Source: a virus (taxonomy: Duplodnaviria > Caudoviricetes). Taken from it: DNA of 64,000 nucleotides. A program made the translations under genes and the position numbers. Position 1 is the first letter of the stretch, and each line of letters opens with the position of its first letter. The notes beneath the pieces are model-generated. The model saw nothing but the letters and a program-made list of their open reading frames with translations, had not been told where the DNA came from and made no database searches. Shown here in pieces: positions 46,499-50,845 of this stretch. The stretch is taken from the IMG/VR virus record IMGVR_UViG_3300046460_000154, positions 103-64,102 of that record, one strand, 5' to 3'.

Positions 46499-46729
46499 TC
46501 AGACCTCCCTCGCCTTGAGCATGTCGTCCGCCATGGCATAGGCGCTCTTGGCGAAGTCGAATCCGAGCTGCTCGTATTTGCCTTTGGGCGTGTAGCCTTG
46601 ATGAAGCATGCCCATGAGAGCCTGCCCCGCAAACCAATCCCGCATCGTCATTCCGTGCTGGGTAAATCCATCGACGGAAGACGTGGGGAACGCGTGGAAA
46701 TCATTGTCAGCGACGATGTCCCCCATCAC
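46499..46729 (-). CDS. small phage protein
   Basis: AFP..GMTMRDWFAGQAL..AYAMADDML motif. Confidence 0.75.
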   Translation of the reverse strand: MMGDIVADNDFHAFPTSSVDGFTQHGMTMRDWFAGQALMGMLHQGYTPKGKYEQLGFDFAKSAYAMADDMLKAREV

Positions 46730-46854
46730 GCTTCCACCTTCTCTATGTTGGAGAGGGGATGAGCGGAGGCAGCAGACGACTGGCAGCCGGGCGTTGACTC
46801 ACCCATGGATTGCGAGTTCAGATATGATTTTCCAACACCGCAGGAGTTGTAGTC

Positions 46855-47187
46855 ATGAGCGTTGATGAGGAAGTTTCGTCCGGGGGGGCCGCTGCCGAGG
46901 TCGTAATTTCGAGCGGGCGTAAGATCGCCGTAGGCGGCGACTGGTGGGACATTCGCGATGATGGGAGACCGGCGGAGTTTGTCGAGGTAATCACGGAATG
47001 CAGGCAGCGAAACGGTGTCGTATTTCTTGCCTTCGCCTCCATGATCATCGACGCCAACAATACCGGACTCGTCTCCATCGCGTCCCGCCTGCGGATGGAC
47101 CTCGCCAACGCGCAGCATCTTCGCAATATGCTGGACAACATCATCACCGATGCCTTGAAGCCATCCGACAAAACGAACGCGAACTGA
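46855..47187 (+). CDS. hypothetical protein, antisense within the cro operon
   Basis: AGGAG RBS; SRLRMDLANAQHLRNML. Confidence 0.6.
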   Translation: MSVDEEVSSGGAAAEVVISSGRKIAVGGDWWDIRDDGRPAEFVEVITECRQRNGVVFLAFASMIIDANNTGLVSIASRLRMDLANAQHLRNMLDNIITDALKPSDKTNAN

Positions 47188-47192
47188 GTGTC

Positions 47193-47441
47193 TCACTGCA
47201 CCGTTCCCCCGTTCATCTGTGCGAGGACAGCGTGGCATGCGTCTGAAAGTTCGATCAGGGATTCCCGTTGCGAGGGGTGCTTCCACTTGGCTTCATCGCC
47301 GGAAACGAAGTTTGAATGCAGCGCGTTACCGGCAGCCATGAGAAGTTCCAGCATAGATGCCCTGAGCGCCGCTTGGTGCGCCTCGGCGCGAGCCAACTTG
47401 ACTTCGCCTTCCATGTATTCACCCGTGAAAATACCGCTCAT
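47193..47441 (-). CDS. hypothetical protein
   Basis: ATGA-coupled to cro. Confidence 0.6.
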   Translation of the reverse strand: MSGIFTGEYMEGEVKLARAEAHQAALRASMLELLMAAGNALHSNFVSGDEAKWKHPSQRESLIELSDACHAVLAQMNGGTVQ

Positions 47442-47671
47442 GCCGCAGTCTCCCGAATGGCGCAATTTGCCTCGTACAGTTCCTCCGGCGACGTTTCCGC
47501 CAGTGACATAACGAGCGGCCAGTGACGGTCAGGAATCCCGTTCTTTTCCCATTTGTAGACCGCGTCGAAAGTGAGCGGTCGCTTGCCTGTGGCCTTGTCG
47601 ATAGGGCCGCTGGCTTCGTGGATTTTGCGAGCACCGCCCGCTGCCTTGATGATGTCGGATATCGTTCGCAT
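47438..47671 (-). CDS. cro: Cro-like regulator
   Basis: IIKAAGG..DAVYKWEKNGIPDRHW; divergent from cI. Confidence 0.8.
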   Translation of the reverse strand: MRTISDIIKAAGGARKIHEASGPIDKATGKRPLTFDAVYKWEKNGIPDRHWPLVMSLAETSPEELYEANCAIRETAA

Positions 47672-47684
47672 GCACTTTCTATAC

Positions 47685-47738
47685 GGAATTTAATTCCAAC
47701 TTTCAAGCGGGGAATTCAATAACTTTGAATTATTTTCC
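47685..47738. promoter_or_regulatory. oR-like operators
   Basis: palindrome GGAATTTAATTCC at 47685, degenerate copies at 47711 and 47726; same motif at 48984 and 49012. Confidence 0.75.
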
Positions 47739-47754
47739 AAGTTATCTTCTCGGC

Positions 47755-48336
47755 ATGACATGGGCCGCGAGACTGCAGAGCAAATTCAAGGATACGGGCT
47801 GGACGAAGGCGGAGCTTTCGCGCCGATCTGAGGTCGATTACGACAACGTCACGAAGTACCTGGCTGGGAAGGTCAAGCAGCCACGCGGGGACGTGCTGGC
47901 GCAGCTCGCACGAGCGCTTGATGTCGATCCGCTATGGCTGGAAAAGGGAATTGACCCGGACGCACCTTCGCGGAGTGTCCCGCTCAAAGGCTTCATTGGC
48001 GCGGGGCAGTATGTCGAAGCGTTGGAGCATGGCCCGGAAGAGACCGACGCGCCGGCCGATTCACACCCTGACACCGTTGCTGCGCAGATCAAGGGCGACT
48101 CTCAACTGCCGATGCTGCATGACGGGTGGATCATTTATTGGTCGATCCTTAAGCCGCCCGCTCTGATGGTCAATCAAATGGCAGTCGTGCAGCTCGCCGA
48201 TAGCCGGATCATGGTCAAGACGCTTCGGAATGGATCGCAGCCGGGGCTGTGGACGCTGACCAGCTTCAACGCCGCCGATATCGTAGACGTGCCGGTTGAT
48301 TGGGCTGCGAAGATAGATTGGATCAAGCCGAGATGA
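47755..48336 (+). CDS. cI: CI repressor (XRE HTH + S24 peptidase)
   Basis: ELSRRSEV..LARALDVDPLWL; GAG cleavage site; GDSQ and MVK catalytic motifs. Confidence 0.9.
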   Translation: MTWAARLQSKFKDTGWTKAELSRRSEVDYDNVTKYLAGKVKQPRGDVLAQLARALDVDPLWLEKGIDPDAPSRSVPLKGFIGAGQYVEALEHGPEETDAPADSHPDTVAAQIKGDSQLPMLHDGWIIYWSILKPPALMVNQMAVVQLADSRIMVKTLRNGSQPGLWTLTSFNAADIVDVPVDWAAKIDWIKPR

Positions 48337-48518
48337 AGCAGGCATCCTATGGACTGGTGTTTCTGGGACTGTGCATCGTTGCCGCCGCTATCATCATCGC
48401 GCTTTCGAGCCGATATTCTGGCGGCCCTTTGTCGGAAGGGGTTACTTGGAAACTCGATCGGATGACAGGGCGGATGATTTATTGCGGGATAACCGGGTGC
48501 ATTGAGCCCAAGCTCTAG
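48333..48518 (+). CDS. small membrane protein co-transcribed with cI
   Basis: ATGA coupling; one TM; WKLDRMTG. Confidence 0.65.
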   Translation: MKQASYGLVFLGLCIVAAAIIIALSSRYSGGPLSEGVTWKLDRMTGRMIYCGITGCIEPKL

Positions 48519-48519
48519 G

Positions 48520-48939
48520 CATAGGTATCATCATAGACGTAAGGTGAGGTAACACCTTGTCTTGATCCGCACTTCCGAGCTTTCAGACAGAACAGCACAT
48601 TATCGACCAGGCTGATGCACGGATGGTCCCGGCGTCTCTGTAGGGGCCTGCGCTCCCGGTGATAAGGCATTCGCGCCTAACCTCACGCAATTCGTCGTTT
48701 ATGCTACCTTGCGAGCAGCTAGGTCCGTCCAAGACCGCGCTTTCTGTCTCACCACATACCCTATGAGAAATTAGCCATTGACCATCGATCTCACGTTTAC
48801 CCCGGTTTAAAGGCCGGAACCTGATGGAGAGCTTTTCGTTGACTTAGGCGCCGTTACTGTATAACATTTGCCCTGTCCAAGACTGGTTAGCACTTCCAAC
48901 TAAACCACATTCAGAAGCCTCGCCCTAACTCGGCGGGGT
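48520..48939 (-). ncRNA. candidate ~420-nt structured non-coding RNA
   Basis: promoter TTGCAA-N17-TATAAC (48974..48946, minus); no ORF >=60 aa; nested stems, e.g. 48585-92/48742-49. Confidence 0.55.
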
Positions 48940-48943
48940 TTTT
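48873..48943 (+). ncRNA. candidate ~70-nt antisense RNA
   Basis: TTGACT (48839)-N17-TAACAT promoter; stem-loop TGGTTAG-CACTTCCAA-CTAAACCA; terminator GCCTCGCC..GGCGGGGT-TTTT. Confidence 0.65.
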
Positions 48944-48983
48944 GCGTTATAGAGCCACCCTCTTCCCATTGCAATAAAAAGTT

Positions 48984-49032
48984 GGATTTTAATTCCGATT
49001 GTTGTTGACTTGGAATTTAATTCCGATATTCT
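48984..49032 (+). promoter_or_regulatory. pL-like early promoter with two CI operators
   Basis: GGATTTTAATTCC (48984), GGAATTTAATTCC (49012); TTGACT (49005)-N16-TATTCT. Confidence 0.75.
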
Positions 49033-49087
49033 CTCCTCATTCGAACAGCGACTTCCTCCCCCACGGGGAACGAACGGAGAGAACGGA

Positions 49088-49399
49088 ATGGCCAGCCTGC
49101 TAATCACCAAAGAAACCGCAATGGACATTGCCTACGCATATCGCGAGGTCGAAGTGGCCGAGAAGCTCCTAGCTGAGATCACAGAATCTTTGGAGCGCCG
49201 CCAGCAGCCGGACATTCGTGACGCCTTTGGACGTCAGCAGGGCGGTTTGCAGTTGGGAGTGCCAAGCGGCGAAAACTCTCATCGCCTTTTCAACGTCCCG
49301 TGGGAACTGGCGAAGCCAATCCTTGAAACGCATATCGCTGCGTCTAAGGCGAAGATCGCCGTCCTCACCGAGAAGGCAAAGGAAGAGTGCCGGTTCTGA
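49088..49399 (+). CDS. early hypothetical protein
   Basis: GGAGA RBS; first pL gene. Confidence 0.7.
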   Translation: MASLLITKETAMDIAYAYREVEVAEKLLAEITESLERRQQPDIRDAFGRQQGGLQLGVPSGENSHRLFNVPWELAKPILETHIAASKAKIAVLTEKAKEECRF

Positions 49400-49484
49400 C
49401 CGCTTAGGCAATGGCCTTCGGGCCATTTTCCAAACGATCACTCCCCCACGGGGAAAAGACGCTGGCAACTGGAGAACGACGGAA

Positions 49485-49637
49485 ATGACGAACCTCGAAG
49501 CCGCAGCCGACGCATACGCCAAAGACAAGCAGGCGGCCTATGTCGCCAAGCGCGGCGGCAGCGTTCCAGTCAAGGCCGCTCTCGACGTCTATCTCTGGGC
49601 CTTCAATCGCTTCGTTGCGAACCCGGACGCCGCCTGA
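49485..49637 (+). CDS. early hypothetical protein
   Basis: GGAGA RBS. Confidence 0.55.
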   Translation: MTNLEAAADAYAKDKQAAYVAKRGGSVPVKAALDVYLWAFNRFVANPDAA

Positions 49638-49681
49638 CTTCCCCCTTCCCCCATCCCCCATTCAAGGGAACGGATCCGAAA

Positions 49682-50077
49682 ATGATGACGATAGCTGGAT
49701 TGCTCAATGAACAGGCGCTTGACGCCGCTTGCACTGCCGGGCTCCAAGCCGCCCTGAGAACATCTGGCATCTATAGGTCGGAAATCGAAGCCGCTATTTT
49801 GGCCTACCTGACAGCAGTTCATCCTAAGCCTGACGCGCCATCCGCGACAACCCTTTGTGAGGACTGCCCCCGGTACGGACATTCCACCGATGACACGCGA
49901 TGCACGCCCTGCCCTCGTCGCCACCAATGGCGTGTTCGGGAGTTCTCGGCAGTCACCCTCGAATGCTGCGATGTTTGCGGGATGGTGAAGAACATTGATC
50001 AACCGAACAAGCCATGTCGCGGCCCGGCAACGGTCGGACCTAAGAGTGCCGCAACTCTCAAAGCGCTCGATGGCTAG
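49682..50077 (+). CDS. early Cys-rich protein
   Basis: CEDCP..CTPCP; CCDVCG..C. Confidence 0.6.
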   Translation: MMTIAGLLNEQALDAACTAGLQAALRTSGIYRSEIEAAILAYLTAVHPKPDAPSATTLCEDCPRYGHSTDDTRCTPCPRRHQWRVREFSAVTLECCDVCGMVKNIDQPNKPCRGPATVGPKSAATLKALDG

Positions 50078-50117
50078 CCCTCCCCGACAAGGGAGAGATG
50101 AAACCGGAGAAACGGAA

Positions 50118-50429
50118 ATGCCCGCCCTCGACATCCTCAAGCAACGCGACATGGCAGCGATGGCCCTCCGGCTTAACCGCCAGATTATCGACGAAGATGT
50201 TCGCGGCTGCCGCTGGGTTGTCGAGTATCGCAGCAAGCGGACGGACGTCCATGCGGATTACCTCCGGACTCTCCGACTTCTTACCGAGGCACAGGCCCTC
50301 GCCGACAAGCTCGGCATGCAGGACTGCCCCCTCGCCCATCCAATTCCACCGCTGGAAATCTGGCGGGATGACTTTCGCTGGGACGACGTTCTCGCCCGGA
50401 CAAACCCACCATTCGCGACTGCGGCTTGA
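50118..50429 (+). CDS. early hypothetical protein
   Basis: GGAGA RBS. Confidence 0.6.
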   Translation: MPALDILKQRDMAAMALRLNRQIIDEDVRGCRWVVEYRSKRTDVHADYLRTLRLLTEAQALADKLGMQDCPLAHPIPPLEIWRDDFRWDDVLARTNPPFATAA

Positions 50430-50440
50430 AGGAGACGACG

Positions 50441-50845
50441 ATGACAACCGAACTGGTAATCAAGGAAAAGCTTGCCGACCTCGTCAAGGGGATGCTGGCC
50501 AAGGGGTTTCGGCAGCCGGAATCCACTTTCATTCTCCAGGCCGACAAAGAGCCCATGATCATGTTTGGTTGGCTCCCGGCTGGCCGCATGTTTCGAAACT
50601 ATGACGGCGACTCGGCGCATTTTGCCGGCGCAGACTTCTCCGAATGCTTGGTGAAGGCTCACGAATGGCTGGACAAACAGCCCACCGTCGAGCAGCGCCA
50701 GTTCCGCGAGTTCGCTGAAATCCTCGCCAAGGCGGTAGAGGTCGGCAAGCAGAACGGTATCGACGCCGTGCTCGTCAACCCGCTCGAAAAGGCCATGCGC
50801 GATCTTAGCAAGAACGCGCTCATGTTTCAGTCGGAAGCCGCCTGA
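50441..50845 (+). CDS. early hypothetical protein
   Basis: AAGGAG RBS; NPLEKAMRDLSKNAL. Confidence 0.7.
   Translation: MTTELVIKEKLADLVKGMLAKGFRQPESTFILQADKEPMIMFGWLPAGRMFRNYDGDSAHFAGADFSECLVKAHEWLDKQPTVEQRQFREFAEILAKAVEVGKQNGIDAVLVNPLEKAMRDLSKNALMFQSEAA

Follow-up and report, generated by a model that had tools for sequence, protein, structure and literature searches.

Phage lysis-lysogeny switches are textbook protein circuits, and the known cases of RNA-based immunity come mainly from P4 and P1/P7, in which a small stable RNA is encoded in the immunity region (CI in P4; c4 in P1/P7, Rfam family C4, RF01695) and whose pairing sequences differ between the related phages P1 and P7. In P4, the CI RNA pairs with the sites seqA and seqC, which results in premature termination, according to a passage of PMC4825925. 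A passage of the same source presents DicF (Qin) and IsrK (Gifsy-1), two non-coding RNAs found beside the repressor/cro switch of lambdoid prophages, as partly pieces of long untranslated transcripts (PMC4825925). Here we describe an RNA module located between positions 48520 and 48974 of a 64,000-nucleotide (nt) stretch of DNA from a tailed virus (Duplodnaviria; Caudoviricetes; IMG/VR record IMGVR_UViG_3300046460_000154, positions 103 to 64,102), the whole of which is called the window hereafter, and which had been pointed out in an earlier note made from the sequence alone. Comparison with homologous loci shows a self-contained RNA-only module of temperate Rhizobiaceae phages, placed at the end of the immunity operon before the left operator/promoter. 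As the best explanation, we propose with moderate confidence that two co-oriented RNAs of this module form a cognate RNA-RNA switch at the border between the lysogenic and early-left operons.

The family contains 21 loci and 20 distinct sequences from Rhizobiaceae phages and prophages. The loci were gathered by pattern scans of IMG/VR, species genomes and metagenomes and filtered by blastn, nhmmer and two covariance models (3 of the 21 were provided by a genus-wide blastn), and both covariance models match 21/21 sources. The earlier note had suggested an RNA-only module belonging to no known family and had asked for homologues and covariation, and the comparison agrees with it: base pairs co-vary strongly over the 20 distinct sequences when compared with shuffles, no Rfam match was obtained and no conserved open reading frame (ORF) was seen. 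Indeed, a search of Rfam 15 with positions 46500-50500 of the window (E<=10) returned a sole match, outside the region (Xoo5, E 8.1), and the same search with eight homologous loci (E<=5) gave four scattered weak matches, none of them recurring; membership of an Rfam 15 family, including C4 antisense RNA, small RNAs, riboswitches and ribozymes, was not found. Likewise, no ORF is shared among the homologues according to the ORF list and the alignments. Literature searches, with supplements outside their reach, found no paper on the element, and the names of four phages carrying it gave 0 papers.

The alignments support a two-domain pseudoknotted RNA of ~300 nt, predicted on the plus strand (48535-48836), which would combine a long-range closing helix, an H-type pseudoknot in the 16-mer TTATCGACCAGGCTGA and at least eight further helices (Table 1). 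In Domain 1, the 5' strand of the closing helix P1, GACGUA-A-GGUGAGGU, pairs with ACCUCACG...UUCGUC; this helix forms in 9/9 single-sequence plus-strand minimum-energy folds (first-found sequences) and shows a U-A to A-U exchange in locus L006. Over the 20 distinct sequences, 95.1% of the 612 cells of Domain 1 are paired, against 88.3% in shuffles and 40-55% with slid partners, and 11 of its 31 pairs change on both sides, a figure reached by 0/500 shuffles. The pseudoknot was exposed by the more divergent loci, and the model R1 used for aligning the sequences did not contain its stem S1. The GCCUG strand of S1 stands immediately 3' of the GGG strand of the second stem, S2, and S1 occurs in four fully compensated versions (CAGGC/GCCUG, CGAGC/GCUCG, CGAGA/UCUCG and CAAGA/UCUUG), with AU:14/GC:6, GC:12/AU:8 and CG:10/AU:7 as pair types and full compensation in three of five pairs. 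The pair types of S2 are GC:10/AU:4 and GU:15/UA:3/AU:2, including a G-C to A-U change; three pair types are found at the closing pair of P4, and three also in P6, which encloses the conserved loop AUUCGC. Two first readings were abandoned, namely a helix P3 (GCUG/CGGY), rejected when L084/L085 and L088-L096 showed the pseudoknot stem S1 instead, and P5, revised into S2. An alternative local hairpin (48535-48562) uses the 5' strand of P1 and, by eye, is compensated in the window (AAGGUG/CACCUU) at a place where no compensation is seen in the distal pairing, so that the RNA may switch between the two folds. Just upstream of Domain 1, where the promoter scan lists TTGAGC-18-TATCAT at 48502-48531, the conserved box may either serve as a -10-like element or belong to the transcript.

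Domain 2, whose alignment was fitted to a second model (R2), contains the hairpins P9, P9a and P10 and a long-range helix, PD2, in which a CU-box pairs with a G-box. Pairing reaches 84.4% of 603 cells, against 73.1% in shuffles, and 21 of the 31 pairs change on both sides (0/500 shuffles). For PD2, cognate partners score 13.71 and non-cognate partners 12.68, a difference reached by 31/20,000 permutations. Of the 17 loci with the small RNA, 16 have a U-run after the G-box.

Directly downstream, the small RNA gene proposed in the earlier note, with a plus-strand promoter-like site at 48839 (TTGACT-17-TAACAT) and a terminator-like hairpin (48922-48939, with a T-run), was confirmed in the sequence. 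This gene is present in 17 of the 21 loci, and the pattern TTG...N17...TA[TC]AAC occupies the place of its promoter in 17/21 loci; TATAAC resembles alphaproteobacterial -10 elements. In the stem-loop SL1 and the terminator, 10 of the 13 predicted pairs stay paired through two-sided changes (13 sequences), and a promoter, a stem-loop, a GC-rich hairpin with a U-run and compensatory changes, all expected of a rho-independent small RNA gene, were thus found together.

The evidence that joins the two RNAs is a contact that has been conserved. Domain 2 ends, ~60 nt upstream on the same strand, with the G-box and U-run, to which the small RNA's apical loop and the A-run before it are complementary; 15 of 16 loci show pairing at 9 or more positions out of 12. 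Loop and G-box change together in seven compensated versions (AAACUUCCC/GGGAGGUUU, CUUCCG/CGGAGG, CUUCCU/AGGAGG, AAAGCUCUU/GAGGAGCUUU, UCUCCA/UGGAGA, CCUGCCAA/UUGGCAGG and AGGU-C-UCGCCA/UGGCGA-C-GCCU), and one position of the helix is U.G in 7/13 sequences. With each pair taken at its own best ungapped register, cognate partners score 18.69 and non-cognate partners 16.59 (of 24), which was reached by 1/20,000 permutations, and the duplex energies are -13.94 and -10.72 kcal/mol, respectively (0/20,000 permutations); both permutation figures overstate independence, because related sequences share both partners by descent, and this counts against our proposal, although the divergent classes carry the covariation signal despite shared descent. 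The loop also resembles the CU-box, L005 having GCUCUUGC in both. Elsewhere in the window, AAGUGC (47672-47677), directly before the AUG of the cro-like gene in its minus-strand mRNA, is by eye complementary to GCACUU of the loop. The cro-like start codon was rejected as a general target of the loop, the match being of six bases and not reproduced in L002.

In the explanation that we favour, the G-box, the CU-box and the small RNA loop would act as a three-partner switch. The long RNA would probably be a 3' extension of the repressor transcript, or come from a weak promoter of its own, and the ~70-nt small RNA would be made directly downstream from its own promoter and terminator. In one state, the CU-box would close the G-box into a 3'-end or terminator-like hairpin followed by Us; in the other, the small RNA would capture the G-box, either in trans or in cis on read-through transcripts. 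At the border of the lysogenic and early lytic operons, the outcome would be a choice between termination and read-through, or a change in how stable or available either RNA is, in a manner that may be likened to the action of P4 CI RNA with seqA, and the loop/G-box versions would be specificity classes. A bolder reading, which we regard as speculative and rather unlikely, is a second RNA-only immunity/exclusion system, in lambdoid phages of Alphaproteobacteria, with a lock-and-key pair in specificity classes and Domain 1 as sensor. The pair would then decide whether transcription or RNA of the lysogenic operon, or of a superinfecting relative, passes into the early-left operon, and Domain 1, through two mutually exclusive 5' pairings, would sense a ligand, a protein or a ribosome and feed this decision. 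If true, this would constitute a new class of large phage riboregulator.

Several observations weigh against the two-RNA switch. The long RNA is also found in four loci that lack the canonical small RNA, and the pairing of the window itself is the weakest of the family (AGC-A-CUUC with GGAG-A-GCU, 7/8 by eye). PD2 is a low-complexity CU/GA pairing of small effect size, weak in L006 and L036. No second, seqC-like site was found in the 500 nt downstream (best cognate versus non-cognate score, 17.2 versus 16.5), and the upstream alignment of the 21 loci contains no conserved -35 element for the long RNA. In L095, CCUU replaces the U-run, contrary to a terminator role there, and AGG replaces the A-run, which suggests that pairing, rather than termination as such, is conserved. 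Finally, the starts, ends and strands of all these RNAs are predicted from sequence; a search for sequencing runs holding the element returned four runs of DNA or unknown type and none of RNA.

The strand of the long RNA deserves particular attention. The earlier note had assigned the structured RNA to a minus-strand transcript, and the wobble pairs speak otherwise: read on the plus strand, the Domain 1 helices contain 52 G.U and 6 A.C cells and PD2 69 and 4, so that we consider the plus strand the likely one. By helix, the G.U:A.C counts are 18:0 in P1a, 4:0 in P1b, 15:0 in S1 (with a sixth pair), 15:6 in S2 and 69:4 in PD2, with a bias in favour of the plus strand, since these helices were first picked from a plus-strand prediction, of which one (P3) was wrong. 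By eye, an extension of P4 keeps a conserved U.G between Watson-Crick pairs in most sequences, and the four loci without canonical small RNA have a plus-strand hairpin and U4-5 after Domain 2 (L089 and L085 among them). The caveat of the earlier note that wobbles do not settle the strand was nevertheless a fair one. On the plus strand, P8 has 41 Watson-Crick, 18 A.C and 0 G.U cells and P7 76, 4 and 0; together these 22 A.C and 0 G.U cells fit the minus strand, where A.C would be G.U. The alifold energy of the P8/P7 stretch is also better on the minus strand (-13.7 versus -5.5), and the consensus energies (plus versus minus) are tied in Domain 1 (-28.6 versus -28.8) and favour the minus strand in Domain 2 (-12.5 versus -21.0).

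The counts and energies of P8/P7 favour another arrangement, which we judge unlikely, in which the functional long RNA would be a ~420-nt minus transcript started at the 48974-48946 element and running leftward, possibly into the repressor operon, with the small RNA as its dedicated cis-antisense regulator, as in ColE1 RNA I/RNA II, hok/sok or CopA/CopT. The element is present in the sequence as the earlier note had read it, TTGCAA (48974-48969), 17 bases and TATAAC (48951-48946); it is absent from the promoter scan because the rule used there requires a T at position 6 of the second hexamer. It is found at the same relative place in 9/18 loci (shuffles: mean 0.68, maximum 4), further loci keeping TTGACG with a poorer -10, and its predicted transcript would be antisense to the small RNA. 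For the earlier claim of a small RNA antisense to the first ~70 nt of the long one, the convergent promoter-like element is supported by its conserved position (9/18 loci), but the contact that is conserved is the loop:G-box pairing and not the antisense overlap. The minus transcript also gains from the hairpin 48535-48562, which on that strand precedes a U-rich tract and might be a left-border terminator (partly by eye), and from the fact that a plus-strand ORF often ends right where the module begins, which leaves no space for a promoter on that strand. It is opposed by the 121 G.U against 10 A.C cells of P1, S1, S2 and PD2 on the plus strand and by the U.G of the loop:G-box helix (7/13 sequences), which would become A.C; moreover, on a minus RNA the G-box site and the small RNA loop would be of like sense, which precludes their pairing. 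In the L089 group, Domain 2 has a plus-strand terminator behind it, the -10 is poor in L002, L036, L078 and L088 (CAGAAA, AAAAAC), and the window offers such a leader no conserved ORF or other output further downstream. An additional antisense transcript is plausible.

Other functions can be imagined for the module. Prophage-encoded sponge RNAs are known (AgvB/AsxR), and the G-box (GGGAGGUUUUU type) resembles a ribosome-binding site and the loop an anti-Shine-Dalgarno sequence; the small RNA could then target Shine-Dalgarno-like G-rich sites of host or phage mRNAs, and the long RNA, as a G-box mimic, could titrate it in lysogens. The co-variation of loop and G-box and the complementarity of GCACUU to the site at the cro-like start codon agree with such a decoy. 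We find it improbable, however, as a conserved host target would hardly be expected to come with several loop classes, which suit a private partner better, a search of the early-left leader and its first genes revealed no conserved complementarity, the cro match is limited to six bases (in L002, it is another segment of the small RNA that matches the Shine-Dalgarno-like site of the cro-like gene), and the 170-nt pseudoknotted Domain 1 would be left unexplained. It is very improbable that the module is only a passive cis element, that is, a structured 3' untranslated region with terminators that would insulate the early-left operon and stabilise the repressor transcript, the small RNA being an unrelated moron. 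Its position exactly between two co-oriented operons, its two successive plus-strand hairpin-plus-U signals and the stop codons that the conserved box has directly after the upstream ORF in several loci would suit insulation, but invariant single-stranded stretches, a pseudoknot, a co-varying intermolecular site and a nucleotide conservation higher than that of every neighbouring gene exceed what insulation needs. Least credible of all is a replication element, either an RNA-primed origin with antisense copy control, as in ColE1, or another DNA-level site. A self-contained module that moves between phages with different neighbouring genes, convergent promoter geometry and the DnaA-box-like word TTATCGACC (7/9 positions of the consensus) recall such elements; yet this word is single, iterons and an AT-rich unwinding stretch are lacking, the covariation of pseudoknot and hairpins indicates a folded RNA with conserved loops and not a primer, and the module is outside any replication gene cluster, beside the recombination/integration operon.

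Taken alone, the window would reveal little beyond the small RNA gene, and the case for the long RNA rests on comparison. As the earlier note had stated, the region contains no long ORF (60 amino acids (aa) or more): in the ORF list, the longest ones inside 48520-48924 have 51 and 49 aa, both on the minus strand, and a 67-aa minus-strand ORF (48925-49128) only overlaps the right edge. Folds of 48535-48836 on the plus strand (z 0.07) and of 48520-48939 on the minus strand (z 0.01) are no stabler than shuffles. The repeated words of the earlier note are both present (GTCCAAGAC at 48727 and 48875, GCACTTCC at 48569 and 48890) and are not conserved in the homologues, so that their proposed role as secondary pairing sites finds no support; in the same way, the stem 48585-92/48742-49 exists as an inverted repeat and is absent from the homologue alignments. 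By our own estimate, an 8-mer repeat is expected by chance about once or twice per 455 bases, and these direct repeats and the 8-bp (base pair) inverted repeat are of the length expected by chance in 455 bases. A further perfect 8-bp inverted repeat, GCGCCTAA/TTAGGCGC (48673-48680 and 48844-48851), joins the 3' strand of P6 with the spacer of the small-RNA promoter.

Several other readings of the region were tried and set aside. A coding frame opening at the TTG of the small-RNA -35, after the G-box, is open in only 5/9 loci and in the window stops after two codons (by eye), and a GTG after GGAGG has no spacing, its frame being annotated only in RHph_I3_18. A type I toxin-antitoxin system (hok/sok-like) was rejected for want of a conserved short toxin ORF, the 49-51-aa minus-strand ORFs not being hydrophobic. 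Sigma-54 and tRNA-like readings were dropped by eye, and a CRISPR-repeat-like reading of P8 followed by AUAAAC on the minus strand was judged unlikely.

The features of the module and of its borders are collected in Table 1. They belong to a lambda-like immunity region in which the cro-like and CI-like genes are divergent, with an operator, GGAATTTAATTCC, at 47685 between them. Within the window, the other exact copies of this operator, at 48984 and 49012, surround the 49005 promoter, in accordance with the CI operator that the earlier note had placed near the minus-strand promoter. The plus-strand operon served by the 49005-49032 promoter, which we take to be the equivalent of pL in the lambda layout, comprises ERF, exonuclease, YqaJ and two integrase-family genes. 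The module itself is inserted between the repressor operon (repressor and 61-aa ORF, ending at 48518) and the left operator/promoter, which is where lambda has rexAB. A PHROG search assigned no family to the 61-aa ORF, and the search for tRNA and tmRNA genes over the window gave a single match, a tRNA-Gln at 217-290. In the early-left operon, CCCCCACGGGGAA is present in two exact copies (49058-49070 and 49443-49455), ~20-30 nt 5' of the first two start codons (49088 and 49485), and a C-rich relative precedes the third gene (~49640); these copies may represent a leader hairpin common to the genes or the site of a regulator.

Table 1. Positions in the window of the predicted RNA module, its parts and the features that border it
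Feature	Positions	Strand	Basis and details
cro-like gene	47438-47671	minus	
CI-like repressor gene	47725-48336	plus	Match to the transcriptional repressor family phrog_4 of PHROG (E 2.1e-19); marks the left border of the operon with the module
Small hydrophobic ORF, 61 aa	48333-48518	plus	ORF list; after the repressor gene; stop TAG touches the conserved box
Conserved box (GGCAATAG..TATCAA type; here CATAGGTATCATCA)	48521-48534	plus	Immediately 5' of the RNA; seen in the upstream alignment (21 loci)
Domain 1	48535-48700	plus	P1; variable hairpin P2; P4 48614-48636; P6 48665-48678 (loop ATTCGC)
P1 closing helix	48536-48541 + 48543-48550 with 48680-48687 + 48691-48696	plus	14 bp, long-range
16-mer TTATCGACCAGGCTGA	48600-48615	plus	Identical in the first 9 loci; CAGGC 48608-48612 is the S1 5' strand
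Pseudoknot partner	48643-48657	plus	S2 5' GGG 48643-45; S1 3' GCCTG 48646-50; loop CGC; S2 3' TCCC 48654-57
Hairpins P8 and P7	48703-48736		P8 48703-48719; P7 48722-48736 (loop CGTCCAA); between the domains; stems co-vary
Domain 2	48739-48836	plus	CU-box 48739-48748; P9 48764-48793; P10 48802-48817; G-box GATGGAGAGC 48823-48832; T-run 48833-48836
Small-RNA promoter, TTGACT-17-TAACAT (family TATAAC/TAACAT)	48839-48867	plus	Promoter scan, 9/12
Small RNA, ~70 nt	48874-48943	plus	Predicted start; SL1 48884-48907, loop AGCACTTCCAACTA 48889-48902; terminator hairpin 48917-48939 and T-run
Promoter-like element, TTGCAA-N17-TATAAC	48946-48974	minus	Read in the sequence; back-to-back with the early-left promoter
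Left operators and early-left promoter	48984-49032	plus	Operators 48984-48996 and 49012-49024; promoter TTGACT-16-TATTCT 49005-49032; they border the module on the right

Wherever a locus extends far enough to tell, the element comes after the repressor side and before an operator-rich early promoter. Its ~450 bases are conserved at 70-75% identity across unrelated phage backgrounds: the neighbouring proteins are not homologous to those of the window, apart from one overlapping ORF pair ~3 kb away, and the operators differ from locus to locus. The module is therefore exchanged on its own, independently of the repressors, and its nucleotide conservation, above that of every neighbouring gene, makes it the best-conserved part of its neighbourhood.

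Among phage isolates, blastn found the element in 4 of 50,697 records (~70-75% identity), the Rhizobium phages RHph_Y1_10, RHph_N2, RHEph18 and RHph_I3_18. It is unannotated in three of these and covered by a "hypothetical protein" in RHph_I3_18, where a 136-aa product (EVC14_043) overlies Domains 1-2 (2947-3357 of L004); this is probably a mis-annotation of the RNA, because the frame is closed in other family members. The element is rare in the species genomes searched: two real matches were obtained by blastn in 400 family-level genomes (nine others at E<=0.01 were short) and two with model R1 in 151 genomes, and it is carried by 3/173 genomes in the genus of genome G001 and by 1/8 in that of G002. 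All named sources are Rhizobium or Mesorhizobium genomes or phages, except a contig of a metagenome-assembled genome labelled Pseudobdellovibrionaceae (L046), which is probably a mis-binned Rhizobiaceae phage contig because its sequence, in the element and the neighbouring parts alike, hardly differs from that of the IMG/VR phage contig L005. The Rhizobium genome G451 (L084, L085, L086) has at least two copies, on very short contigs that start or end at the element and with different sequences downstream of Domain 2, which suggests that several prophages share the element and that it breaks the assembly. In the loci of Y1_10/N2 type (L002 2551-2760 and its equivalents in L036 and L078), the small repressor gene faces a conserved, convergent minus-strand ORF of 68-69 aa, whose N-terminus (MKRRALLQGMAAGS...) is twin-arginine-like; this ORF stands immediately to the left of the element and would be reached by a minus transcript running through the element.

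Lambdoid-type Rhizobiaceae phages harbour in their immunity region a conserved RNA-only module that is exchanged independently of the repressors, and its pseudoknotted RNA has a size and complexity that are as a rule the mark of a sophisticated function. The co-varying loop/G-box pair offers a directly testable handle, for which four phage isolates with deposited genomes are available, their hosts being laboratory rhizobia that are not pathogenic. For annotation, the consequence is already visible in RHph_I3_18, where an RNA is labelled as a hypothetical protein.

The closest described systems are those of P4 and P1/P7. Like them, the module places in a phage immunity region a small RNA that is probably stable and whose exposed loop is complementary to part of the neighbouring transcript from the same strand. 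Unlike them, it has no Rfam match, it coexists with a protein repressor and its hosts are Alphaproteobacteria. The RNAs of P4 and P1 are cut from a precursor by RNase P, whereas the small RNA of the module has its own conserved promoter (17/21 loci) and terminator; the position of this promoter directly upstream argues for independent transcription. Only the upstream site was found in the module, with no counterpart of the downstream second site (seqC; a2/b2 at the ribosome-binding site), and its target stands at the 3' end of a 300-nt RNA, predicted to be pseudoknotted, for which P4 and P1 have no equivalent. Because of the absence of an Rfam match, the separate small-RNA promoter, the missing downstream site and the large pseudoknotted partner, the module is not a member of the P4 CI/P1 c4 family.

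The cis-antisense pairs (ColE1 RNA I/RNA II, hok/sok, CopA/CopT, lambda OOP and P22 sar) share with the module convergent promoters and a hairpin RNA that overlaps the 5' end of a possible opposite transcript. They differ from it in that the conserved structure and the co-varying contact of the module are probably on the plus strand and that neither origin features nor a toxin ORF accompany them. The ColE1 analogy of the earlier note was accordingly given up, nothing indicating an origin and no origin-like repeats being seen, and on the features examined the module is neither of the ColE1 type nor a type I toxin-antitoxin system. DicF and IsrK belong to lytic operons and have neither a co-varying partner site nor a large pseudoknotted domain, and the Rfam searches gave no sequence or structure similarity between them and the module. 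Finally, GOLLD, ROOL and HEARO are likewise long ORF-less phage or prophage RNAs with many co-varying helices and a pseudoknot, but the module is much smaller (~300 nt), limited to Rhizobiaceae in what was searched, fixed in the immunity region, provided with a dedicated small RNA partner and unmatched in Rfam. Riboregulation in phage immunity regions is as such already known, and what the module adds to it is a new structured RNA family.

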